24,000 nt of DNA from Actinomycetes bacterium (lineage in GTDB: Bacteria; Actinomycetota; Actinomycetes; JAHEKZ01). The position numbers were made by a program, and so were the translations under genes. The stretch covers positions 9,197 to 33,196 of the forward strand of contig JBDTTS010000002.1 of NCBI GenBank assembly GCA_039930525.1. The letters are read 5' to 3'. Shown piece by piece: positions 7,927-24,000 of this stretch (the stretch's first letter is position 1; each line of letters begins with the position of its first letter). Under the pieces are notes generated by a model. It did not search any database. It worked only from the letters and a program-made list of their open reading frames with translations, and had not been told where the DNA came from.

Positions 7927-9486
7927 TCACGACCACGGATAGATCGGCTTGTACTGCCGCTGCTCGAGGAAAGCCGCCCTCAGCCCATCGGGGTACGGGA
8001 TGTCGAGGACATCGAGGACCTCGGCGGCCACTCTGCTGCCCGACTCAGCCCCTCCGTTGAGGTAGCCCTGGCTGTAGACGGACGTGTGTTCGCCGGCGAA
8101 GTGCGCGCGTCCTTCGGATCGTCCCATCAGGCCTAGGAACGAGGTCATGTTGCCTGGTAGGAAGGCTGCGTAGGAACCTTTCACCCACGGATCCTTGGTC
8201 CAGTAGTCGAGCCACACACCTCCAACCTGGGCGGCGGCTATCCCCGGAAGCATCTCGTCGAGCGCGTCCAGCGTTTGATCGGCTACTTCCGTTGGGGCCG
8301 TTCCATGCGGCTGGTCGGTGGGGTAGGTCGCGCCAGCCGCACCACCGGCGAAGATCGTGACCAGCGCGTACTGGCGATCACTGGAGTCGGCGCTTCCCGA
8401 TTCCCATGTACTGAACTGGGGATCGTCCGCGCGCTGGAGGTAGCCGCTCCAGTTCTCGAACTCTCTCAACGGCTCGTCGAACTGGAGGAGCACCTTGGAG
8501 TTCGTGCCCATCCCTTGTCGGTTGATGGCCAACTTCTTGAGGTCAGAAAACCCGGCTTTGCTCAGGTCGACGTCCTGCATCGCGGTGAATGGCAGTGCAA
8601 GCACCAGGAAGTCAGCAACTACCGGCACCGACGAGTTGCCGAACACTAGTTCGTACTCACCGTTGGACAGTGTTCGAACAGATTCAAGGGCGGCATCCAG
8701 CGTGACAGAGCCAGCGGGGAGCGAAGCTGCGAGGCCTTGCGGGATCTGGTCGTTGCCGCCATGGATCGTGTAACGCTCGTCGTCGCCCGGCCACTCGACC
8801 GCGTAGAAGTCGATCAGGTTCGATGCGGACAACTGGTCGGCGTCGAGTCCGTACCAACTGGCTTGGCCGGCCGAGAAGAGCCGCCCCATGGGCGAGTCGA
8901 TGGACTCACCGGTCTCGGCTGTCAGCCACTCAGCTTCGGTCATCTCGTCGAAGGCCTGCGCCCTGACTCCCGCGTCTTTGGCGAAGTAGGAGCCATTGCG
9001 CTTGGCGACAGAGGTGAGTTGGCGGGACGTCTCGTTGATGGTCGCCATGAAGTCCTTACGGTCGACGTCGACGCCGTCGACCCAGGTCAGCGAGGACGTA
9101 CCGGGTTCCCAGGTGCTCCAGAGGTCATCGACTTGCAACTTGAGCTCTTGTGCGAGGCCGAGCAGGTGGACGTGGCGGGTGTCAATGAACTCGCCACCGT
9201 GCTCACCGACCTGGTCGGCCTCCCACCCGGTTGAGCTCCAGCATCGGCCACCCACCCGGTCGCGTGCTTCGAAGACGCTGACGTCGACGCCGGCTTGGCT
9301 GAGTCGGTAGGCGGCGGTCAAGCCGGCGAGGCCCGCTCCCACGACGACGACGCGGGGGCCACCTTTCGAATCTCTGGTTGAGGGCGTGGCGGCGGCGTCC
9401 GTCGACGGGGGGCTAGAGGTGCACGCACTCAACGTTAGGCCAGCGCTTAGCATCGTGCCCGACGTCAGAAAGGCTCGGCGCGTCAT
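7927..9486 (-). CDS. TAT-exported lipoprotein, flavin-containing amine oxidase family
   Basis: Start placed at ATG 9486, giving 'MTRRAFLTSGTMLSAGLTLSAC' (twin-arginine motif plus lipobox Cys). FAD fold 'VVVVGAGLAGLTAAYRL...VFEARDRVGGR', and a C-terminal 'HFAGEHTS' block typical of amine oxidases. Confidence 0.8.
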   Translation of the reverse strand: MTRRAFLTSGTMLSAGLTLSACTSSPPSTDAAATPSTRDSKGGPRVVVVGAGLAGLTAAYRLSQAGVDVSVFEARDRVGGRCWSSTGWEADQVGEHGGEFIDTRHVHLLGLAQELKLQVDDLWSTWEPGTSSLTWVDGVDVDRKDFMATINETSRQLTSVAKRNGSYFAKDAGVRAQAFDEMTEAEWLTAETGESIDSPMGRLFSAGQASWYGLDADQLSASNLIDFYAVEWPGDDERYTIHGGNDQIPQGLAASLPAGSVTLDAALESVRTLSNGEYELVFGNSSVPVVADFLVLALPFTAMQDVDLSKAGFSDLKKLAINRQGMGTNSKVLLQFDEPLREFENWSGYLQRADDPQFSTWESGSADSSDRQYALVTIFAGGAAGATYPTDQPHGTAPTEVADQTLDALDEMLPGIAAAQVGGVWLDYWTKDPWVKGSYAAFLPGNMTSFLGLMGRSEGRAHFAGEHTSVYSQGYLNGGAESGSRVAAEVLDVLDIPYPDGLRAAFLEQRQYKPIYPWS

Positions 9487-9646
9487 GGCGCTAGCACGGT
9501 GGACCGCTTCGTCAGCAGACATGTCGCGGGCGAGCTGCGACTTGAGCCGAAGCTGCACCATCGACCGCAGGAATCGGTCCTCGGGCGATCGGGGGCCTCC
9601 TGGCAACGCATCCCCCTCTTTACTCCGGCCAGCATGGGCGAGATGA

Positions 9647-10698: not shown

Positions 10699-10741
10699 GT
10701 GCTTTGTGAGGAATTGACTCTGCTATGCGCAGGGTTCTCTG

Positions 10742-10933
10742 GTGTTGGTTGCATCATCCCTCTTGGTCGCAGCGTTTCCCGTCCTGGCGGTCGCCGGTCA
10801 TGATCTGCCTGCCCGCTCGTCGGCTTTGGGGCATAGCCGCGCCGACTGGGCGAGGAACTACACGCAAAGGTTCTACAGCGACGGTGACAACCACAGGCGA
10901 GGCATGTGGCTTCCCTTCACTGGGATAGGGTGA
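10742..10933 (+). CDS. Possible small secreted protein (63 aa), speculative
   Basis: GTG-initiated ORF with a signal-like N-terminus 'LVASSLLVAAFPVLAVAGH' and fairly high third-position GC. It ends 24 nt before the next gene. There is no recognisable family and no clear RBS. Confidence 0.25.
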   Translation: MLVASSLLVAAFPVLAVAGHDLPARSSALGHSRADWARNYTQRFYSDGDNHRRGMWLPFTGIG

Positions 10934-10956
10934 TCACAGCCCGCGAGGAGGCGTTG

Positions 10957-11685
10957 ATGTTCTTCGACCAGTATCCGCGTTTCGTCGAAACCAGTTCGAC
11001 TTCCAGCAGGCCTGCGCGACTCAACATGCGTCACCACGCAATGATCGAGTCCAATCGGTCCATCTTTGCGGGTGCGAGGGTCTTGGATCTTGCTAGCCAC
11101 GACGGTCGTTGGACCTTGGCGGCATTGGACGCTGGAGCATCCCACGCGATCGGCGTTGAGGGACGATCTGAGCTCGTGAAGAATGCCGAAGAGACTTTTG
11201 CTCTGTATGGAGTGGACGCAGCGACGTTCCGTTTCATCAACGATGACATCTTTGATGTTCTGCGCGCTCCGGATGAGAACGGGCTGGAGATCGACGTGGT
11301 CATGTGTCTGGGGTTTATCTACCACACGCTTCGGTACCAAGACCTCTTTGCCGGTGTTCGCTCCCTCAAGCCGAAGCACTTCCTCATCGACACAGCTGTC
11401 ATCTCCAGTGAGAGAGCAACGATCCTGGTGCATAGCGAAGATTCTTCGAAGGAATCTGCAGGATTGGATCACACGTTCCAGGTGGACGGGCGCCTGCTTA
11501 CGGGACGACCCTCGGTCAGCGCGCTCGAAATCATGCTTGAAGCACACGGCTTCACGGTGACTGAGCGTTTCGATTGGCCGGCGTATCTTGAGGCGAACTA
11601 CCCGAAGAACAAGACGGTCGGCTCTTACCGCGACGGCAAGCGTGTTACGTGGCTATGTGAGTTGGACGTGGTCGCTGCCGTCTGA
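10957..11685 (+). CDS. Class I SAM-dependent methyltransferase (atypical motif I)
   Basis: ATG 10957 is preceded by gaggag at 6-nt spacing. It has a Rossmann-type 'ARVLDLASHDGRWTLAALDAGASHAIGVEG' and 'DVVMCLGFIYH'. The glycine-rich loop is replaced by ASHDG. Confidence 0.65.
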   Translation: MFFDQYPRFVETSSTSSRPARLNMRHHAMIESNRSIFAGARVLDLASHDGRWTLAALDAGASHAIGVEGRSELVKNAEETFALYGVDAATFRFINDDIFDVLRAPDENGLEIDVVMCLGFIYHTLRYQDLFAGVRSLKPKHFLIDTAVISSERATILVHSEDSSKESAGLDHTFQVDGRLLTGRPSVSALEIMLEAHGFTVTERFDWPAYLEANYPKNKTVGSYRDGKRVTWLCELDVVAAV

Positions 11686-11718
11686 GCCCGCCCGTTGCCG
11701 AGTCGGTGTCCAGACAAG

Positions 11719-11791
11719 TGCCCTCGGCTGGAATCGAACCAGCGACACACGGTTTAGGAAACCGATGCTCTATCCCCTGAGCTACGAGGGC
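11719..11791 (-). tRNA. tRNA-Arg (anticodon CCT)
   Basis: 73-nt cloverleaf read on the minus strand. Acceptor GCCCTCG/CGAGGGC plus discriminator A, D-arm GCTC/GAGC, anticodon loop TTCCTAA (CCT), T-arm GCTGG-TTCGATT-CCAGC. CCA is not encoded. Confidence 0.9.
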
Positions 11792-12630
11792 GGGACGTGC
11801 GGGATTCCTTGTGGGAAACCCGCTGGACCCTGCCGCGACCCTCGCGGGCGTTGGTCGGGCAAGTCTAGGGGGCGTGATCTTCGGTCGATTTGGTGCTCTG
11901 GGGGTGGTTCGCGCGCCAGTTTGTGGTCTTCGGCTGGTTTTCGGTCGTGCGTGGGGCGGGGGGTATCAGGCAGCGGCTTGGGTGGTGACTGTTGTCGGTC
12001 GATTGCCCGTTGCCAGGTGTGGCGGGCCCAAGCGTTCTGGGCGAGTGCGGCCATCAGAACGATGACGGTCTGGTTGTGCAAACCCCACGCGGGGAGCCGC
12101 CGGTTGTAGAAGGCGCGTTCGAACTGTGCGTTGAGAGACTCGGTGTCGGCGCGCATGCCGTATACGCGGGAGTAGTCGGGATCGGTTGGGGGCCGGACGC
12201 GCGGGTAGTCGCTGCGGTTGAACGTGTGTTCCTCCTCCGTTTGGGTCGGGGTGAGCGGTTCCCAACAGACGTGCGCGTTGTCGTTTGATCGACAGGTCAG
12301 GGTGTGGCGGGCGTAGAAGGCCCAGCTGCCGTCCGGTTTGCGATCTCGTTTGGTCTGGTGCCGTGTGACTTCGACGAAGTCGAGGGTTCCGTCGGCGGTG
12401 ACGACCCGCTCGCAAATCGTTCCACCGGCGGCGTAGAGCGAGTGCCTACCACACTGTTCAATCCAAGCGGTTCGCGCGCGGCTCGGGGGTAGTTGGGCGG
12501 TAGCGTGTCCGTGCTTGCCGATCACGATCCCACCGCGCTCTTTGCTCTTGCGACTGTTGACCGTCAGCGACGCCGGACTCGATAAGCGCACCCTGAACAC
12601 CCGACTCGCCCCGTAGTCCACCCACACCAG
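11792..12630 (-). mobile_element. Copy A: 5'-truncated DDE-transposase-like gene plus ~200-bp tail, flush against the tRNA 5' end
   Basis: ORF 11782..12627. 'YGMRADTESLNAQFERAFYNRRLPAWGLHNQTVIVLMAALAQNAW' shows Y-x2-R-x3-E followed by a W-G-x-H...LMAALA stretch. I associate this pattern with the C-terminal catalytic region of IS4/IS701-type DDE transposases; the family assignment is tentative. The N-terminal half is absent, and the frame is closed by a stop at 12631-12633, inside the heliorhodopsin RBS. The last ~70 Pro/Arg-rich codons running into the tRNA look like read-through of non-coding DNA. 12001-12453 recurs at 13566-14016, and 11792-12030 recurs at 17322-17523. Confidence 0.55.
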
Positions 12631-12642
12631 TCAAGGAGCCTC

Positions 12643-13428
12643 ATGTCCCCCGCCACGACCGCACCGACCGCCACCGGGGTCACCAGCCAACGCCTGAGCA
12701 ACCTGCGCCGTTGGAACATCGGTCTCACCGTGCTGCATCTTGGGCAGGCGGCAGCGATGCTCTTGCTCGCCAACGCGTTCGCCATCGGGGTCCTCTCGTC
12801 GTTTCCCGATGGCCCCCCGGGAACGAAGGGTCTGACGACCACGACCATCTTCGATGTGCGGATTGGATGGGCCATCGCGCTCTTCCTGGGCCTCGCGGGC
12901 CTGGATCACCTGCTGACGGCAACCCTCGCGCGCAAGGTGTACGAGCGAGACCTGGGCCGCGGCATCAACCGCTTCCGGTGGGCTGAGTACTCGGTCAGCG
13001 CCACGATCATGGTCATCGTGATCAGCATGTACTGGGGCATCCTCACGATCAACGCGCTGATCCTCGTCGCCGGGGCCAACGTGGCGATGATCTTGTTCGG
13101 CTGGTTGCAGGAGCGGATGAACCCTCCCGGGCGAACCTCGACCACCATGCTGCCGTTCTGGTTCGGGTCGCTCGTGGGGATCACCCCGTGGTTGGCGATG
13201 TCCGCCAACCTCGTCTACGTCAGCGACGACGCCCCTGGCGCGCTCTTCGTCATCCTTATCGTGCAGGGCCTGTTCTTCTTCTGCTTCGGACTCAATCAGT
13301 GGCTCCAGTACCGCGAGGTCGGCCGATGGGCCGACTACGCCTTCGGCGAGAAGACCTATCTGGTGCTCAGCCTCGGGGCGAAGTCCCTGTTGGCCTGGCA
13401 GATCTTCGCGGTGTCGCTCGCCGCCTGA
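12643..13428 (+). CDS. Heliorhodopsin (7-TM retinal photoreceptor family)
   Basis: 261 aa, with AAGGAG RBS at 12633-12638. Family blocks as I recall them from heliorhodopsin 48C12: 'LLLANAFA', 'GPPGT', 'ALFLGLAGL', 'FRWAEYSVSATIMVIVI' (counterion Glu, E115, codon 12985-12987), 'GANVAMILFGWLQER', 'LPFWFGSLVGITPWL', 'YLVLSLGAKSLLAWQIF' (Schiff-base Lys, K247, codon 13381-13383). The two conserved His residues (H32, H89) are present, with seven hydrophobic segments. Confidence 0.9.
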   Translation: MSPATTAPTATGVTSQRLSNLRRWNIGLTVLHLGQAAAMLLLANAFAIGVLSSFPDGPPGTKGLTTTTIFDVRIGWAIALFLGLAGLDHLLTATLARKVYERDLGRGINRFRWAEYSVSATIMVIVISMYWGILTINALILVAGANVAMILFGWLQERMNPPGRTSTTMLPFWFGSLVGITPWLAMSANLVYVSDDAPGALFVILIVQGLFFFCFGLNQWLQYREVGRWADYAFGEKTYLVLSLGAKSLLAWQIFAVSLAA

Positions 13429-13566
13429 GAACATCGAGGTTTGCTCCGGGTCGCACTCAAGCCGGCAAGACGATGCTGCTGCTGAACTGTCTGGCCGCCG
13501 CCGTCCCGCCCGATGAGCGCGTCGTCATGGTGGAGGAGGTCTTCGAGCTGCGAGTGCCACTGCCCG
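13427..13566 (+). pseudogene. Fragment of a CpaF/TadA/VirB11-type secretion ATPase (Walker A region only)
   Basis: Two frames together read 'ENIEVCSGSHSS' / 'AGKTMLLLNCLAAAVPPDERVVMVEEVFELRVPLPD'. Compare the family pattern NILVSGGTGSGKTTLLNAL...IPPDERIVTIEDAAEL. It is about 45 codons with a frameshift, begins at the heliorhodopsin stop codon and ends at transposase copy B. Confidence 0.6.
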
Positions 13567-14016
13567 ACTCGCTCGCTGCCAGGTGTGGCGGGCCCAGGCG
13601 TCCTGGGCGAGGGCGGCCATCAGCACGTTGACGGTCTGGTTGTGCAGCCCCCAGGCCGGGAGCCGCCGGTTGTAGAAGGCGCGTTCGAACTGCGCGTTGA
13701 GAGACTCGGTGTCTGCGCGCATGCCGTAGACGCGGTCGTAGTCGGGATCGGTTGGGGGCAGGACGCGCAGGTAGTCGCTGCGGTTGAACGTGTGCTCCTC
13801 GTCCGCTTGGGTCGGGGTGAGCGACTCCCACCAGTCATGCACGCTGTCGCTTGATCGACAGGTCAGGGTGTGGCGGGCGTAGAGGCACAACTGCCGTCGG
13901 GTTCGCGATCTCGCTTCGTCTGGTGGCGAGCGACTCAGCGAAGTCGAGGCTTCCGTTTGCGGTGACGACCCGCTCGTAGATCCTCCCCCCGGCGGCGTAT
14001 AGCGAGTGCCCACCAC
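13566..14016 (-). mobile_element. Copy B: internal fragment of the same transposase-like gene (frameshifted, lacks tail and 5' half)
   Basis: It aligns base-for-base by eye with 12001-12453; most positions are identical, with small indels. The translation is split over ORFs 13525..14022 ('...YGMRADTESLNAQFERAFYNRRLPAWGLHNQTVNVLMAALAQDAWARHTWQRA') and 13835..14239 ('...HSLYAAGGRIYERVVTANGSLDF'), so it has at least one frameshift. Confidence 0.7.
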
Positions 14017-14115
14017 CGTCACCGCCAGGTGTCGAAGAGCAGGGCTGTCTGCATGAGAGCCAAGCTACCGAGGTCGTTATGGAGACGGCACGTGGTGGAT
14101 GCGCGACCTTGGCTA

Positions 14116-15184: not shown

Positions 15185-15478
15185 CTATTCCTCGGCCACC
15201 ATCGGCGCATGAATCGAGCTGATGCGGTCCTGCTGATGGGTAAACTTCACACGGTGCGGAACACCTACTACTCGGGTGGATCGGGCGCGTGTTCTTGCGG
15301 ACCATGGCCTGGTGTCACTTCGTCGCTGCATGATTTGCCGTCCACGCATGAGGCGGGAAGTCATCGATGATCATGGTCAGGTGCGGGGCAGTCCCACGAA
15401 CGTTGACTGGGGCTTGCTCGTCTCGGCGAGCAAACCCGCGCAGGCTGTCGTTGACGCGCAGCCGATCTCCCTGAGGGG
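15185..15478 (-). pseudogene. Decayed tandem paralogue of the adjacent NTF2-like gene
   Basis: It reads 'SLRGFA...TMIIDDFPPHAWTANHAATK*HQAMVR' against the intact neighbour's 'AVRAFV...TLIIDDFPPHAWSGSRAATRWYQDMVR'. A TGA at 15315-15317 replaces the Trp codon. A second frame then gives 'RSTRVVGVPHRVKF', matching 'RSAYVVVPVDVRW', so there is also a frameshift. Confidence 0.6.
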
Positions 15479-15481
15479 CCC

Positions 15482-15883
15482 TCAGTACCAGGTCCACGCG
15501 CAGGCCGTGATGCGCCAGCCTTGGTCGCCCTCCTGGGCTGTCATCGCCATGTAGCCCACTCTTTGCGCTGGTGCGCCGTCTTCTAGCCATCGCACGTCGA
15601 CCGGGACGACGACATACGCGCTTCGGTTGCCACCCATCACTTTGCCCGATCCCTCGAGACGAACTGATGGTTCAGACATGCCGAACTCGCCGGCCATGCG
15701 AACCATGTCTTGGTACCACCTGGTCGCCGCACGGCTTCCGCTCCATGCGTGAGGAGGGAAGTCGTCGATGATCAGTGTCTCGTCCTCACAAGCGGCCTGG
15801 ATGAGATCGACGTCGTCATTGTTGAAGGCCTCGACGAATGCGCGAACCGCAGTCATGGGACCGAGATCGGTCACATCAACCAT
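15482..15883 (-). CDS. NTF2-like / SnoaL-like fold small protein
   Basis: ATG 15883 is preceded by GGGAGG at 6-nt spacing. 133 aa beginning 'MVDVTDLGPMTAVRAFVEAFNNDDVDLI', which resembles the opening of NTF2-like (SnoaL/DUF4440-type) proteins. Confidence 0.6.
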   Translation of the reverse strand: MVDVTDLGPMTAVRAFVEAFNNDDVDLIQAACEDETLIIDDFPPHAWSGSRAATRWYQDMVRMAGEFGMSEPSVRLEGSGKVMGGNRSAYVVVPVDVRWLEDGAPAQRVGYMAMTAQEGDQGWRITACAWTWY

Positions 15884-16151
15884 CTGCGACCTCCCAGAGG
15901 ACAGCACCCTTGTATCTGTGCGCTCACGTAGCACCCTAACGCTGTGGTCGCTATCGAGTCATGACGTGAGACCGACGCCGCTGGACCGGCGGCAGAGTGA
16001 GTTCGGGAGGGTTTAGGTGCGCAGCTGAGGGGCACCGAGAAAGGTTGAGGCACGACCACTCGTCTCCGCGAAGAATCGCGACACCCTCACTACGGGAAAG
16101 CCGGGGAGGTCACCGTGGCGGCCTGAGGGCGGTCGTTGTGGTACAGGACAG

Positions 16152-17136: not shown

Positions 17137-17321
17137 GCGGAGACCCTATTGGCACTCTGGGATCCAGCCCAGAGTCCTGACCGGCCTGTAGCACAGTGCG
17201 CGGCACCGACGCCGCCTCCCGAGCGTGCTCCTGCGAACTCTTGTGTGACAGATCAGACTTCATAAGGGAGGTCCACAAAGGTTGACTTAGGACTACTTGT
17301 CTCCGCGGCCAAGCCGACAGC

Positions 17322-17800
17322 CGGAACGTGCGGGATTCCTGTGGGAACCTGCTGGACCCTGCGGCGGCCCTTGCGGGCGTTGGCCGGGCTCAAGTTCCTT
17401 GGCCGGTTTCCGGTCGTGCCTGATCTAAGGAGGTTGCGTGAAGTGTGAGGCCCGGGTGTCAGGCAGCGACTTGAGGAGGTGATGGTTGTCGATCGATCGC
17501 CTGCTTCCAGGTGTGTGGGCCCAGTCGGAGTCGGGATCGGTCGGTGGCCGACGACGAGCCCCAGGGGAGCATGGAACCCAGGGACAGGATTGTCACGATC
17601 CACGCAACAGTTGCCTGCCCGAACTTGCTGCTCGAGTCGTTCCGCACTCCCATGTGGCACCGTCCCATCGATTCAGAATGTACTTCGGGTGGAACTGCAC
17701 TGCCTCGTCCCAGGTTCGGGCCAGCGCCGCAGTCTTCGACTCAACTGAAAGTTGCTCGAGCACGAATGCTGCTTCCAGATTTGGCCATATCTACTTCCAC
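17322..17800 (-). mobile_element. Copy C: divergent terminus of the transposase-like element (tail plus last few dozen codons)
   Basis: 17322-17523 aligns with 11792-12030 (shared 'acgtgcgggattcct..gtgggaa..ctggaccctgc..gcgggcgttgg.cgggc' ... 'tcaggcagcg.cttg' ... 'ccaggtgtg.gggccca'); copy A carries about 60 extra nt. ORF 17459..17668 ends 'GPHTWKQAIDRQPSPPQVAA', against copy A's 'ARHTWQRAIDRQQSPPKPLP'. Upstream of that point only weak, frame-broken similarity remains. Confidence 0.5.
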
Positions 17801-17802
17801 GG

Positions 17803-19080
17803 TTAGGTCCGCAGCGATGCCACGACCACTTCCCCCGCGGGGACAGTCACAGTTTGCGATCGACCGATTGCCGCGATCTCCGCTGTTGCCGTCGGGACTG
17901 TAACCGACTGCTGTGACTCTGGGTCAAAAATTTGTGCGGCTTGCCAGAGCAGAAGATTCAACACCCCAGTCCGAGTCCCGGTGAGCAACCACCTCACATT
18001 CGCGGGTGCCCCGACTTTGAGGCGCACTGGCTCTGGGGTAAAGGGCCGACCGGGATCCTTCAGCGATGCTAGGAATGTCCGCATGACATCCGCTTCCGGC
18101 TTCTCGGTCCAGGTCGCGGAGTCAAGACTGGGGGTTCGCCACAGGCCGAAACTGGACTCGATATCAGCGTTGTCGGGATCGGGATCGTCAAGCAACTCAT
18201 AGCGAATGCTTTGACAGCCGCGGGTAAAGAACTCAAGGACAGTGATGGGAGCGTAGGCAGCCGAAACCTCCTCAGGAACCGGCAGGTGCCCGTCTGGAGT
18301 GGCCATTGCGTTTGTGTATCCGGTCTCGGTGACCCAAGTGGGTACATCGCCATACGCTTCGTTGATCCACCCGAGACGCTCGTCCACGAGGTAGTCCGGA
18401 TAGCGCCCTCCGAAGTACCGATGCAAGCCCGCGTAGTCGAAGTAGTTCTGAACACCGAGTGAACCCAACCTGAGATGGTCGGCGTAGGCGGTGGGGACGG
18501 TGGCGTGTAGTGAGGGGCCGATGACTTGTGTACTGGGCATTTCGGTTTTGACGAATTCGTAGATGGCTTTTTGCACATCTAGCGTCTGTTCAGCCCAGTC
18601 TGCAGGTGGACTCCCACCACCTCTGATGTTGTTGGGTTCATTGACTCCTTCAATGGCGATGATGACGTCAGCGGCATTGTCCCGAATGTGCGCCAATCGG
18701 GAATTGAGGGCGGTGGTCGACTGTGTCCAGTCCGGTGGGGTGACGGTTGCTACCCATCCCAGTCCGAGGCTGCGCGCCTCGCTGACAGTTTGAGCAACGC
18801 TCTCCAGCCCCTCGGCATAGAGGCCCCGGAAGTACCGCACGTCGAGCGTTGCCAGGCGATCGATCCACGCGCCAGTGTCGGCGTAGACCGTGGTATTGAA
18901 GTTCGGGTGCGTACAGACGCCATAGGACTGATAGATCAGGTCTGAATGGACGGGCACCACCTGCTGCGCGACGGGGCTTGCCAGGGTTGCCTTCTCGAGG
19001 TCTGATCCTGACCTCCGGAGGGTGAATGCGAGGCCAGCTACCCCGGCCCCCGCAATCAGAGCCCTGCGGGTGAGCCCCAT
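17803..19080 (-). CDS. TAT-secreted clan GH-A-like glycoside hydrolase (TIM barrel plus C-terminal beta domain)
   Basis: ATG 19080 is preceded by GGAGG at 5-nt spacing, giving the TAT signal 'MGLTRRALIAGAGVAGLAFTL'. 'IIAIEGVNEPNN' is a candidate acid/base Glu in an NEP motif, and 'TWVTETGYTN' a candidate nucleophile Glu. This arrangement is typical of GH5/GH39-like enzymes; the exact family is unknown. Confidence 0.55.
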   Translation of the reverse strand: MGLTRRALIAGAGVAGLAFTLRRSGSDLEKATLASPVAQQVVPVHSDLIYQSYGVCTHPNFNTTVYADTGAWIDRLATLDVRYFRGLYAEGLESVAQTVSEARSLGLGWVATVTPPDWTQSTTALNSRLAHIRDNAADVIIAIEGVNEPNNIRGGGSPPADWAEQTLDVQKAIYEFVKTEMPSTQVIGPSLHATVPTAYADHLRLGSLGVQNYFDYAGLHRYFGGRYPDYLVDERLGWINEAYGDVPTWVTETGYTNAMATPDGHLPVPEEVSAAYAPITVLEFFTRGCQSIRYELLDDPDPDNADIESSFGLWRTPSLDSATWTEKPEADVMRTFLASLKDPGRPFTPEPVRLKVGAPANVRWLLTGTRTGVLNLLLWQAAQIFDPESQQSVTVPTATAEIAAIGRSQTVTVPAGEVVVASLRT

Positions 19081-19120
19081 GTCCACCTCCCCCAAGGGAC
19101 CGGTGCCGATCCTGAGGAGT

Positions 19121-20227
19121 TCAAGGAGTCGGATCGAGGTGGAAGCGCTGGAAGGGGACACTGCACGGGTGACCTGGGGAGAGCCACATCGATCGACTCT
19201 CTGACTCACAGATCATCGCGAACAGGATAGTTGAGCCTTCGTCCCCATCGACCGGGTCGGGGTGCACGCAGATCGATTGGTCTTCGCCGGCATGGTCGGC
19301 GAGGAGGAGTGACACGTCCTCGACAGTCGCCGTTGAACCACTTGCCAGCGACTGTGCCCGCCTGAGTCTGGATGCACTGCCATCTGACACCTCGAAGGTT
19401 TGCTTCGCCACGTCGGGGTCCAGCGCGTGGTTAGTGTGCACCTGGCTCGATACGAGTGCTGCAGTTGTCGCCGTAGTCTCGATCACGCACGACTCGCCAC
19501 CGGCGAACGTGCAGAGGTATGAGTAGCCACCAGCACGGCCCGATCGGTTGGCCCGCTTGAAGGCATCGGCGGGGTCGACGGCGTCCAACAGGGAACGGGC
19601 CACAAGCGCGCGCGGGATGCCCGGACGTTCGTCTTTGGCCGACAGCGACATCGTTCCGAACGCGGCGCCGTATTCGTTCAGGCCAACCAGGGGCAGGGTT
19701 CCCGCTACTACTGGGGCGAGCAGGACAGGACCATCGTTCGGTGAGTCTCGAACGATCCCCACCGCACCGTCATCGCCCGAGTACCACTGCTCGTTGTGCC
19801 CCAGAAGGGTGGTTCTGTCCGCCTTCAAAACAACGTCGGTGCAACGTTCGGCAGCAGTGGGCGCCGGATTCGCGAGCTCGACGATGCCGTAGATCTCCTC
19901 GAAGGCGTTCGCGGCGAATAGATCCAGGAACGATTGCTCGGCCCCAGCGGCGATACCGCGTATTTGCTTCACCAGGTCGGGCAGCGCCACCTCGGACGCC
20001 TCGACGAACGGGGTGAGTATCGATTCGAGCGCGAGACGATCGATTCCGTGCCGCGCCAGGTAGCGGCTGTTGAAAGCCACTGATTTGGCGATTGCTTCGC
20101 GAAACGCCCCACCAATGATCGCGCCGCGCTCGAAGGGCGTGCCCTTTGCTTCGACGGGCGTCAACTCGGGGCTTGGCACAGCGCTCGAGGGTTGGGGTGA
20201 TTGGCTGAGTTCGGGCTGCACCCTCAA
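19121..20227 (-). CDS. Peptidase C45-like N-terminal-nucleophile acyltransferase/hydrolase
   Basis: 368 aa. 'ERCTDVVL...LLGHNEQW' resembles the autoprocessing Cys site and the following HNE/D-W block of the acyl-CoA:6-APA acyltransferase (C45) family. No signal peptide. The start is non-ATG (TTG 20227 or GTG 20221), so uncertain. Confidence 0.5.
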   Translation of the reverse strand: MRVQPELSQSPQPSSAVPSPELTPVEAKGTPFERGAIIGGAFREAIAKSVAFNSRYLARHGIDRLALESILTPFVEASEVALPDLVKQIRGIAAGAEQSFLDLFAANAFEEIYGIVELANPAPTAAERCTDVVLKADRTTLLGHNEQWYSGDDGAVGIVRDSPNDGPVLLAPVVAGTLPLVGLNEYGAAFGTMSLSAKDERPGIPRALVARSLLDAVDPADAFKRANRSGRAGGYSYLCTFAGGESCVIETTATTAALVSSQVHTNHALDPDVAKQTFEVSDGSASRLRRAQSLASGSTATVEDVSLLLADHAGEDQSICVHPDPVDGDEGSTILFAMICESESRSMWLSPGHPCSVPFQRFHLDPTP

Positions 20228-20311: not shown

Positions 20312-22270
20312 TTAGTCAAGTGCGCCGACGAACTGCGCGTTGTAGAGGGCGAAGTACACCCCCTGCCGTTCGAGGAGCTCGGAGTGAGTGCCCTGCTCGA
20401 CGATCTGCCCAGCCTCCATCACGATGATTTCGTCGGCATCGCGGATCGTGGATAGCCGGTGCGCAATGACGAAGCTGGTTCGGTTAGACCTCAGGGCGCT
20501 CATAGCCTTCTGCACGAGGACCTCTGTTCGGGTGTCTACCGAACTTGTCGCCTCGTCAAGGATCAAGAGGGACGGGGCCGCGAGGAAGGCTCGCGCGATC
20601 GTGACCAACTGCCGCTCACCCGAACTGAGGTTGCTGGCCTCATCGTCGATGACCGTGTCGTAACCATCCGGGAGAGCGTGAACGAACCGGTCGACGTACG
20701 TGGCTCGGGCTGCGTCCTGGATCTCCTCTTCACTGGCATCGGGTCTTCCGTAGGCAATGTTTTCTCGAATCGTCCCGCCGAACAACCAGGTTTCCTGCAA
20801 CACCATGCCGATCTGGCTTCTTAGGTCACTCCGGCACATCGAAGTGATATCTGTTCCGTCGAGGGTGATCCGCCCGGCGTCGAGTTCGTAAAAGCGCAAG
20901 AGCAAGTTGACCAGAGTGGTCTTGCCAGCTCCCGTCGGTCCGACGATCGCGACGGACTGCCCGGGCTCGGCCACCAGCGACAGGTTTTCGATGAGCGGTG
21001 TACCCGGGACGTACCGGAAGGAGACATCCTCGAACTCCACCCGACCGGTCGTTTCCACGGGGCGTGCTGGGTCGATGTGGTCCGGAATCTGGTCTTCGGC
21101 GTCCAGCAGCTCGAATACTCGTTCGGCCGAGGCAACACCTGACTGCAACAGGTTCGACATGGACGCCACCTGTGTGAGGGGCTGACTGAACTGCCGCGAG
21201 TACTGGATGAATGCCTGGACGTCGCCTAGTGACATCGTCCCCGACGCGACACGAAGGCCACCGAACACGGCGATGAGAACGTAGTTCAGGTTTCCGATGA
21301 AGGTGATCGCCGGCATGATGATTCCGGACAGGAACTGAGCGCCGGCGCTGGCCCGGTACAACGATTCGTTCCGTTCAGCGAAGACTGCTTCAGCCTTTGC
21401 CTGGTGTCCGAAAACTTGCACGAGAGCGTGACCGGTGAACGTCTCTTCAACGTGCGCGTTGAGTGTGCCGGTCTCGTCCCATTGCTGGATGAAGAGCGGC
21501 TGAGATCGCTTGGCAATCAGCATCGTGACGACGATGGACAGCGGTATCGAGACCAATGCCACCAAAGCCAGCGTCGGCGAGATCAGCAGCATCATCGCCA
21601 AGACGCCCACCAAAGTCATCACCGAGGTGAGCAGCTGACTCAGTGTTTGCTGCATGGTCTGCTGAATGTTGTCGATGTCGTTGGTGACACGACTGAGCAG
21701 CTCACCCCGAGGGTGAGTGTCGAAGTAGCGAAGCGGCAGTCGGTGAAGCTTCTCTTCGACGGATCTACGCAAGCGCAACACAGTGCGTTGCACCACGCCG
21801 TTGAGGATGTATGCCTGAAGCCACATCACCAGGGACGCCCCGACGTACAAGGCGAGCACGAGGATCAGGGTGCGGCCGAGCGCGTCGAAATCGATCTCCT
21901 GTCCAGGGACAACCGTCATGCCCGACAGCAGGTTTGCGTAGCCGTCCTGCCCCGCAGACCTCGCCGCGTCGATCGCCTGCTGTTGCGTCATGCCAGAAGG
22001 AAGCTGAGCGCCAATAACGCCGGAGAAGATGATGTTGGTGGCGTGGCCCAGGATCCGCGGGCCGATGACCGACAACGTGACGCTGAACACCGTCAGCATC
22101 ACCACCAGCAGAGCTAGGGCGCGTTCCGGATGAAGCTGAGCGAGGAGCCTCCGGGCAGAGGGAACGAAGTTGAGCGACTTCTCGGTCGGCATGGCCGCAC
22201 CCATCGCCGCCCCAGGTCCATGTCGCGGTGTCGAACCTGGGGGTGGACGAGTCCCCGACTGAGTGCTCAT
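20312..22270 (-). CDS. ABC exporter half-transporter (TMD-NBD), subunit B
   Basis: 652 aa: six-helix type I exporter TMD, then an NBD with Walker A 'GPTGAGKTT', signature '[14 protein letters not shown]' and Walker B '[12 protein letters not shown]'. ATG 22270 overlaps the upstream stop (ATGA). Confidence 0.9.
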
Positions 22271-24000
22271 GCGGCACCCTCTGTTGGGAGTTGTGACTCC
22301 ACGATCTCGAGGTATGTGTCGCAGGTCAGTAGCAGTTCGTCATGCTGGCCTACGCCGACCAGTGCCCCGTGTTCGAGCACCAGGATCTGGTCGGCATCGA
22401 TGACGCTTGAGACCCGTTGCGCCACCATGAGCACGGTGGCGTTGCCCGTCTCTGCGCGCAGCGCCGATCGGAGGCGAGCGTCAGTGGCCAGATCGAGTGC
22501 CGAAAAGGAGTCGTCGAAGAGGTAGATCTCCGGCCGGCGAATGATGGCACGCGCGATGGCGAGACGCTGTCGCTGTCCACCCGAGAAGTTGGTGCCACCT
22601 TGAGCCACCGGCGCGTTGAGTCCGTCAGGAGCGGCTCGGACGAAGTCCTCTGCTTGTGCGACCCCCAAGGCACTCCACATCTCGGCCTCGCTGGCATCGG
22701 CCTTGCCGTACTGCAGGTTGCTCGCGATCGTCCCGGAGAACAGGTAGGACTGCTGCGGAACGAGCCCGAGCCGAGCGTGCAAGGCTCTGGGCGCCAAGTC
22801 TCTGACGTCGACACCGTCGACGCGTACCTCACCTGCCGTGGCGTCGAAGAGCCTGGCAACAAGGGATATGAGCGTTGTCTTTCCGGCCCCGGTGCTGCCG
22901 ACGATTGCGGTCAGCTGTCCCGGTCTCGAGACGAATGTGATGTCGCGCAGGACCGGTTCCTCGGCCCCTGGGTATTGCAGCCCGGCACCCACTAGCTCGA
23001 CTGTTGCGTGAGAGATCGGTGTCGCGCCGGTGGTGGTGGCGGGAACGACAGTCGAGTCGGTGTCGAGGACCTCACGGATCCGATCGGCGGCGACCGTTGC
23101 GCGGGGAATGAGCACGACCATGAAGGTGGCCATCATGATCGCCATGAGAATCTGGATCAGGTACGCCAAGAAGGCAGTCATCGACCCGATCTGCATCTGA
23201 CCGCTCGCCACCCGGTGCCCACCAAACCAGATCACCGCAACGCTGGCTGCGTTCAGGACCAGCATGATCGTGGGAAACATCAGGGCCATCAGGCGGCCTA
23301 CACGAAGAGCGGTGTCGGTGAGGTCTTCGTTCGCCACCCCGAACCGCTGCTGCTCGATCGGCTCGCGAACGAACGCGCGCACCACGCGAATGCCCGTGAT
23401 CTGTTCCCGAAGCACCCGGTTGACCACGTCGATTCGGGCCTGCATGAGACGGAACTGCGGAACCATGCGGGTAACGATCAGGGTGATCACCACCAAGAGC
23501 ACCGTCACGCTAACGACGATCAGCCAAGCGAGTCCGAGGTCTTGGCGAAGGGCCATCACGATGCCGCCGACGCACATGATCGGGGCCGTGATCATCATTG
23601 TGCACGACAACAGCACCAGCATCTGGACCTGTTGGACGTCATTGGTGTTGCGGGTGATCAATGACGGAGCGCTGAAGTGCGCCATCTCCCTGGCCGAGAA
23701 AGTGCCGACCTGCTGAAACAGCGAGGAGCGGGTGTCTCGCCCGAATGCCATCGACGCATGGGCGCCGTACCAGACCGCGGCGATGGTGCAGACGATCTGG
23801 ACGAGCGTCACTGCCAGCATGATGCCGCCGATGCGCACGATGTATCCGGTGTCTCCGGTGGCGACACCGTTGTCGATGATGTCGGCGTTCAGCGTGGGGA
23901 GGTACAGAGCGGCGATCGTGGCGAGGAATTGCAGGACGACGACTGCAGATAATTCTCGTTTGTAGGGTTCGAGGAACCGCCGCAGAAGGGGGATCAGCAC
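22267..24000 (-). CDS. ABC exporter half-transporter (TMD-NBD), subunit A; N-terminus at or beyond the window edge
   Basis: Walker A 'GSTGAGKTT', signature '[14 protein letters not shown]', Walker B '[12 protein letters not shown]'. The frame is open to position 24000 (GTG there), so the true start cannot be fixed. Confidence 0.85.

Follow-up and report, generated by a model that had tools for sequence, protein, structure and literature searches.

The 24,000-nt stretch analyzed here (the window; contig JBDTTS010000002.1 of the Actinomycetes bacterium assembly GCA_039930525.1) encodes an intact heliorhodopsin (HeR). Its gene lies on a patch of ca. 0.87 kb (12565-13429) that was acquired horizontally from a higher-GC actinomycete and has not been ameliorated. 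With a probability of roughly 0.8, the locus as a whole is best explained as a canonical HeR of functional appearance that arrived as a bare patch and now rests in the debris of integrative elements.

A preliminary description of this DNA, made from the sequence alone, had claimed an intact heliorhodopsin gene, and the open reading frame (ORF) was found exactly as claimed, running on the forward strand from ATG to TGA. The seven motif blocks that it named were all recovered at their places in the 261-residue product: LANAFA (42-47), GPPGT (57-61), ALFLGL (79-84), FRWAEYS (111-117, with E115), ILFGWLQE (150-157), LPFWFG (170-175) and LSLGAKSLLAWQIF (242-255, with K247). The same was true of the glutamate, the lysine and the two histidines. 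Family models were matched far above their cutoffs. Pfam PF18761 gave 292.1 bits (cutoff 26.7, E = 3.8e-87) over profile positions 1-241 of 242, and the HeR equivalog model NF038020 of NCBIfam gave 241.3 bits (cutoff 100, E = 1.1e-71). In phmmer comparisons with PDB sequences, 48C12 was matched at E = 5e-55 and the Thermoplasmatales HeR at E = 2e-40. The key residues paired with the following correspondences between the window protein and 48C12: H32/H23, H89/H80, E115/E107, S243/S237 and K247/K241. A 267-aa ORF on the opposite strand (12631-13434) is without family support and was taken as a high-GC shadow of the HeR gene.

An AlphaFold (AF2) model of the protein was built on 24 relatives (predicted local distance difference test score, 82.9; predicted template-modeling score, 0.78). 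The seven helices that had been expected are present in the model (residues 15-43, 74-93, 110-130, 136-159, 170-196, 200-224 and 232-260). E115 is placed in the third of these (helix C) and K247 in the seventh (helix G), where the lysine had been predicted to fall. Helices A and B are connected by a long beta-hairpin (strands 47-55 and 64-73). Foldseek superposed the model on 6su3, 6su4, 6is6 and 7u55 with template-modeling (TM) scores of 0.84-0.90 and E-values of about 1e-16; the TM-score to 48C12 was 0.86. Type-1 rhodopsins were matched at E-values of at least 4e-4, mostly with TM-scores below 0.62 (the best was 0.67), so that the solved HeRs and the type-1 rhodopsins are separated by twelve orders of magnitude in E-value. 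Lysines and arginines were counted by segment: the N-terminal segment holds R17, R22 and R23, the BC, DE and FG loops hold four, one and one, respectively (more if helix ends are counted), and the outer loops hold two. This distribution fits, under the positive-inside rule, the predicted inverted topology with a cytoplasmic N-terminus.

The window protein thus has every defining feature of an HeR at the levels of sequence and fold. It shares both family and fold with 48C12 (PDB 6su3/6su4/6uh3; 41-42% identity) and with the Thermoplasmatales HeR (6is6; 33% identity), along with the lysine in helix G, the glutamate in helix C, the two histidines and the A-B beta-hairpin; an inverted topology like theirs is predicted from the positive-inside rule. 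No difference was apparent among the features compared.

The identification is correct but ordinary, and it is no discovery. An identical protein was already present at NCBI (P0001, on a 33-kb contig) under the name “MAG: heliorhodopsin HeR [Actinomycetes bacterium]”, where MAG stands for metagenome-assembled genome; this label agrees with the actinobacterial type of context that had been proposed. More than 4,500 homologs were found at E <= 1e-20. Relatives at 73-78% identity occur in Arthrobacter, Cryobacterium, acI/Nanopelagicales, a Herpetosiphonaceae MAG, Trichococcus and Exiguobacterium, a distribution that crosses phyla. The closest relative is 92% identical, and the allele in the window is unique. 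As a typical, annotated member of a family that numbers thousands in actinobacteria, the gene adds little to HeR biology; the interest of the locus lies in how the gene came to be there.

The limits of the imported DNA were defined by blastn against the loci of the closest relatives (HeR 89-92% identical). Shared sequence was confined to 12567/12608-13428/9. The contexts of seven close-relative HeR loci all differ from that of the window and among themselves. On the left, the shared segment begins in the last codons of a MarR gene, namely the one that precedes HeR in loci of the L003/L005 type. On the right, similarity to every relative ends 1-2 nt past the TGA of the HeR gene.

The composition of the patch is foreign to its surroundings. 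The GC content of third codon positions (GC3) is 0.897 for the HeR gene, as opposed to 0.60-0.79 in every other long coding stretch of the window, the overall GC content of which is 62%. Orthologous HeR genes of the relatives have GC3 values of 0.85-0.92, as is usual in the GC range of their loci (64-71%); the value in the window matches that of relatives from genomes of 67-71% GC. Because the boundaries are sharp in this way and the foreign GC3 equals that of the relatives, the patch was assigned to a higher-GC actinomycete and was taken not to have been ameliorated.

What flanks the patch are fragments of a gene for a protein of ca. 467 aa, here called X, upstream of an intact tRNA-Arg(CCT) gene. 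Fragments R and L are 83-90% identical. A full-length X (P0122, 467 aa, in L010) is collinear with the window, in that its codon 273 onward is followed by a spacer of ca. 190 bp and then by the same tRNA-Arg(CCT); fragment L is collinear with L106 as well. Fragment L thus remains where it originally lay, with other DNA in the place of its N-terminal 272 codons. Beside the tRNA gene lies one exact attachment (att) half-site (11782-11802); a second att-type site, at the third X remnant, is a degenerate stub (17326-17380) that retains a left arm with one mismatch and has lost its core. Tandem X fragments with other inserts were observed in L112, L123 and L129.

Neither a recombinase gene nor the left end of an element was found in the window. 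The surroundings of the HeR gene are therefore immobile wreckage, i.e. remnants and not an element. Compared with the definition of a tRNA integrative element (a recombinase, two att repeats and adjacency to a tRNA), the window has the adjacency but not the full set. HeR was absent from all other X loci sampled (79 metagenomic loci and L009-L011); hence, its capture is specific to this lineage.

Features of the HeR patch and its flanks in the window
Feature	Coordinates	Strand	Remarks
tRNA-Arg(CCT)	11718..11791	-	intact; first 10 nt are the center of the att-like core
X-to-tRNA spacer	11792..11976	-	last bases CCGCACGTCCC, within 11782-11802, equal the left arm of the core site of the element family
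X fragment L	11977..12552	-	codons 273-464 of a ~467-aa protein without known function; N-terminal 272 codons gone
Junction filler	12553..12564	.	~12 nt between the MarR scar and truncated X
MarR 3'-end scar	12565..12585	+	left edge of patch; …CGA CGC CGG ACT CGA TAA = R R R T R stop; L003 ends …R H R T R stop
Native leader	12586..12642	+	57 nt, common to relatives; includes ribosome-binding site (RBS) AAGGAG at 12633-12638
Heliorhodopsin coding sequence	12643..13428	+	261 aa, intact, ATG start, TGA stop; H32, H89, E115 (counterion), S243, K247 (Schiff base)
140-bp filler	13430..13568	+	unrelated to the downstream DNA of any HeR relative
X fragment R	13569..14017	-	codons ~307-455; two 1-bp indels (pseudogene); truncated at both ends
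Third X remnant	17322..17520	-	last 18 codons (17462-17515) plus a spacer copy ending at the would-be tRNA start

The simplest sequence of events would be as follows. A patch of ca. 0.87 kb, comprising the last MarR codons, the MarR-HeR spacer and the HeR ORF, would have been cut from the MarR-HeR module of a higher-GC actinomycete. Illegitimate recombination would then have placed it among stacked, decayed integrative elements upstream of tRNA-Arg(CCT). In the process, a foreign mosaic of ca. 1.0 kb (12553-13568), fillers included, would have taken the place of all sequence between codon 455 in one copy of X and codon 273 in the following copy. The 140-bp filler is probably debris of another mobile element. 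It translates as a P-loop fragment (GRTQAGKT…; …GRTQAGKTMLLLNCLAAAVPPDERVVMVEEVFEL…) with a weak likeness to ATPases of the T2SSE, VirB11 and CpaF type; at E = 0.3 this is not significant, and assignment as a secretion-ATPase fragment was rejected and retained only as a hint.

The module from which the patch derives is preserved in relatives of the window HeR. A MarR ortholog lies 62-670 bp from HeR in six loci (L002, L005, L006, L008, L012 and L013; HeR 79-90% identical), a C-terminal MarR remnant adjoins HeR in L003 (HeR 91% identical), and MarR is also found in L034 (HeR 74% identical). It is absent beside HeR in the window, in L171/L173 and in ca. 70 more distant HeR loci. The linkage is confined to the clade of the window HeR; it is kept in both orientations, co-directional and divergent, and also where a 136-aa ORF weakly similar to PNPOx (E = 0.003) has been inserted. 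The divergent MarR-HeR intergenic regions contain operator-like palindromes (TTGGTAACCAA; TTGGCAATATAGCCAA), of which the HeR leader in the window has none; those of L006 and L013 have the form TTGG-N(3-6)-CCAA. Compared with the six loci and the L003 remnant, the window has the same leader, the last MarR codons and an HeR that is 79-91% identical, but it lacks MarR, the PNPOx-like ORF and the palindromes. MarR is not among the ten neighbor classes listed for HeR in PMC11109279, nor is it mentioned in the HeR context analysis of PMC8612252. A search of the literature turned up no paper that ties HeR to MarR or to mobile elements, which shows only that this search found none. The persistence of the MarR-HeR linkage, often with the PNPOx-like ORF, through several rearrangements provides a testable lead on how HeR expression or signaling is wired.

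In one of these relatives, a Cellulomonas MAG (L002), the HeR gene is carried on an island of ca. 15.6 kb (L002:1605-17212) that extends from a tRNA-Gly gene to a perfect 43-bp repeat of tRNA-Gly nt 31-73. It carries an integrase gene adjoining tRNA-Gly, a TrwC relaxase, MarR, the 136-aa PNPOx-like ORF, HeR and PemK/RHH toxin-antitoxin genes. With a recombinase, att repeats and tRNA adjacency all in place, the island is, by its sequence, an integrative mobilizable element. Carriage on a defined element of 15.6 kb constitutes base-level evidence of HeR movement and helps to explain why the phylogeny of the family does not follow taxonomy. In the closest relative of all (92% identical; L171:2-349 and L173:538-1422), an ABC-2 family permease gene is directly upstream of HeR; this permease is 75% identical to one located 1.5 kb from HeR in L005 (L005:7637-8446), which echoes the published association of HeRs with ABC transporters.

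The preliminary description had also held that the new genomic context would contribute functional information. This part did not survive: the HeR gene reached the debris of mobile elements by horizontal transfer, as a patch, and its neighbors are therefore accidental. The informative context lies in the relatives, where HeR is linked to MarR, and not in the window.

Ratios of nonsynonymous to synonymous substitution (dN/dS) of the HeR gene were 0.10-0.22 against six relatives. Changes private to the window branch comprise nine synonymous and five nonsynonymous ones (T4A, E16Q, T43A, V141L and A203V); the latter are all conservative, and none is at a functional position. The X-R fragment, which is much shorter than the HeR gene, has accumulated two frameshifts. 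The low dN/dS, the conservative private changes and the intact ORF next to a frameshifted X-R argue for continued purifying selection on HeR, and the gene may be expressed.

Several points weigh against the proposal of a selected, horizontally acquired HeR patch. The low dN/dS mostly reflects the history of the gene before its transfer; the changes private to the window branch are few (14), and part of that branch predates the transfer. Neither a sigma-70-type promoter nor an intrinsic terminator was detectable around the gene (10700-13700), with the proviso that actinobacterial promoters are poorly caught by a sigma-70 consensus. Relative to its relatives, the HeR leader has suffered a 7-bp deletion just upstream of the RBS. 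As the preliminary description had noted, the 24-kb window contains no genes for retinal synthesis: a Pfam scan of 26 ORFs (22 of them at least 150 aa long) returned neither crtEBIY nor blh, nor any other carotenoid or retinal gene. Finally, the source is a MAG and the patch lies between repeated sequences, so that a chimeric assembly is conceivable.

Several of these points would also be accounted for if the gene were an intact but silent passenger that has neither promoter nor regulator, is not expressed and has simply not yet decayed. The absence of MarR and of the operator-like palindromes, the lack of a promoter-like site and of nearby retinal genes, the shortened leader and the pseudogene status of both flanking X copies all favor such a passenger. 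It is nevertheless judged unlikely, although it retains real weight. A reading frame of 261 codons is free of frameshifts and stops, whereas 150 codons of X-R have acquired two indels; the nine synonymous private changes outnumber the five conservative nonsynonymous ones, with every key residue kept; and the RBS is intact, 4 nt before the ATG. The poor capture of actinobacterial promoters by the consensus scan diminishes the force of the missing promoter, as does the fact that ca. 61% of HeR genes are solitary in any case (PMC11109279) for the missing neighbors.

Vertical inheritance of a native HeR, with only its surroundings scrambled by mobile elements, was considered very unlikely. HeRs are very common in Actinomycetota and the locus is clearly a rearrangement hot spot, both of which would fit such an account. 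It does not explain why the HeR gene alone, with its GC3 of 0.90, stands out in a window of 62% GC and equals orthologs in genomes of ca. 70% GC, why the 79 metagenomic X/tRNA-Arg loci and L009-L011 never contain HeR, or why the patch is cut off within the MarR stop region on one side and at the stop codon of HeR on the other; moreover, the same HeR clade is found on the bona fide integrative element of L002. A chimera of metagenome assembly, in which foreign HeR reads were joined at repeated X sequences, is highly improbable as well. The MAG source, the foreign composition and the position of the patch between two copies of a repeat are compatible with it, but the X copies (83-90% identical) are too diverged to have been collapsed by an assembler, the junctions do not coincide with repeat edges common to any HeR donor and include unique filler (12 nt and 140 nt), this allele of HeR is unique (92% to its closest relative), and two separate misjoins within 1.1 kb would have been needed.

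The X fragments themselves belong to a family that was characterized further. X has no NCBIfam match, and no Pfam or PHROG match was returned in the 22 members scanned. A profile search gathered 893 clusters at 50% identity, 128 of these at E <= 1e-30. An AlphaFold model of X (predicted local distance difference test score, 69) had no significant neighbor in the PDB (best Foldseek E = 0.014, TM-score 0.17); the weak top matches were Mos1, Hermes and retroviral integrases, all DDE recombinases, and are a hint only. In the locus sample, a tRNA gene lies 200-350 bp downstream of X on the same strand in 32 loci (22 Arg(CCT), nine Lys(TTT) and one Arg(TCT)). Upstream of X, a divergent tyrosine recombinase of ca. 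295 aa was present in 12 of the 14 loci with enough upstream DNA (Phage_int_SAM_1, 24.7 bits vs. a cutoff of 22.3; PHROG integrase, E = 3e-9).

At thirteen places without a tRNA, the spacer ends in CCGCACGTCC-CGCCCTCGTA-GGACGTGCGG and is followed by conserved sequence. This string consists of two 10-bp inverted arms around a center equal to tRNA nt 1-10, and judged by its letters it is built like the core site of a tyrosine recombinase. Single contigs (L129, L160 and L011) carry two or three of these sites in a row, which points to repeated integration at the tRNA 5' end. The family (window 11718-12552 and 17322-17520; L009-L011 and L092-L170) thus apparently represents undescribed integrative elements with a tyrosine recombinase and a domain-less protein of ca. 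470 aa. Like other tRNA-targeting islands with tyrosine integrases, the window has tRNA-adjacent remnants with att-like cores. However, the usual site of such islands is the tRNA 3' end, whereas the X family appears to use the 5' end, with a core of tRNA nt 1-10 plus a promoter-side arm; it also includes the ca. 470-aa protein without known domain, and the copy in the window is decayed. It would be unusual for an element to insert at nt 1-10, the 5' end, of tRNA-Arg/Lys genes and to provide the tRNA with its upstream region or promoter, and the family is possibly worth its own study. Neither the HeR clade nor X was found on viruses in IMG/VR.

X was observed to be broken at two recurrent places, codons ~266-273 and ~298-308, on several independent contigs with different upstream DNA in each (window ~12552 and ~14017; L107, L129 and L139; L112, L113, L125, L127 and L132). 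This recurrence suggests either internal recombination hot spots or the proliferation of defective derivatives.

That the X fragments are arms of a composite transposon, or that X is a DDE transposase, and that HeR was mobilized in this manner is barely credible, for although direct repeats flank HeR and X has D/D/E-like conserved blocks, a Y-x2-R-x3-E motif and the weak Foldseek matches given above, none of these matches is significant, no member scanned has a domain match, both flanking copies are internal fragments without ends (codons 273-464 and 307-455), X-L has kept its original place by synteny, none of the other X loci contains HeR, and the pairing with a tyrosine recombinase (12/14 loci) together with palindromic att cores indicates site-specific integration. 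The defining arrangement of a composite transposon (two complete insertion-sequence copies with their ends, flanking the cargo) was not found, as there are fragments only and no transposase domain match.

With the horizontally acquired, selected patch as the preferred reading, a working model of the protein can be proposed. The HeR would cross the membrane with seven helices and have a cytoplasmic N-terminus. K247 (helix G) would be the attachment point of all-trans retinal, and E115 (helix C) is the predicted counterion. By analogy with characterized HeRs, it may act as a slow-cycling photosensor that modulates a cytoplasmic or membrane partner via its basic cytoplasmic loops, and not by ion pumping. 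The bacterial partners reported are glutamine synthetase for AbHeR (PMC9529153), a photolyase for TfHeR (PMC9769723) and the OmrDE ABC exporter for OcHeR (PMC11109279); charged cytoplasmic loops have been implicated in the ABC transporter partnership (PMC11109279). Like these regulatory HeRs of monoderm bacteria, the window protein has basic BC and FG loops; its identity to the protein from Trichococcus patagoniensis (P0080), a member of the genus of TfHeR, is 76%. The partners of TfHeR, AbHeR and OcHeR are encoded in the same operon, whereas the window has no photolyase, glutamine synthetase or adjacent ABC transporter gene. The window HeR accordingly stands alone, having no MarR, operator, recognizable promoter, partner or retinal genes within 24 kb. 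Since only the ORF was transferred and then maintained, a conserved host protein would be a likelier partner than a co-transferred one.

A broader possibility is offered tentatively, namely that HeR serves in Actinomycetes as a self-sufficient, mobile light-sensing cassette: a MarR-linked clade would travel on integrative mobilizable elements, and here a bare ORF would have been salvaged into a lower-GC host and kept by purifying selection with neither a regulator nor an operon partner nor retinal genes. If so, HeR activity would be independent of a specific co-transferred partner, and the protein would act on a universally conserved host protein or alone. The locus also carries a caution for guilt-by-association: a gene on an imported patch in mobile-element debris has neighbors that are there by accident.

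The remainder of the window was surveyed in the Pfam scan mentioned above. It encodes a GGDEF/GAF protein, a GDSL lipase, several methyltransferases, an ABC-2 transporter, an M1 peptidase, an amine oxidase, a trypsin-like protease, two SnoaL-like proteins, an AAT-family acyltransferase and a pair of ABC exporter half-transporters. The Amino_oxidase protein (7927-9606) was considered as a CrtI and ruled out (42.5 bits vs. a crtI family cutoff of 238). Photolyase, glutamine synthetase and glutaredoxin, which have been reported as partners or neighbors of other HeRs (PMC9769723, PMC9529153, PMC8612252), were not present among the 26 ORFs. The half-transporter pair (ABC_membrane plus ABC_tran; 20312-22270 and 22267-24000, both on the reverse strand) is of the same general type as OmrDE, the partner of OcHeR. 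It is encoded on the strand opposite to HeR, at a distance of 7 kb and beyond the element remnants, and the resemblance is probably coincidental.

Just past the third X remnant, a 468-aa ORF (17803-19209, reverse strand) begins with what resembles a twin-arginine signal (…LTRRALIAGAGVAGLA…) and matched nothing in Pfam or NCBIfam. Between the element remnants, the SnoaL-like gene block contains two direct repeats, one of 83 nt (76% identical; 15296-15378 and 15697-15779) and one of 31 nt (81% identical; 16040-16070 and 17277-17307), which possibly reflect the duplication of paralogs together with shared regulatory sequence.

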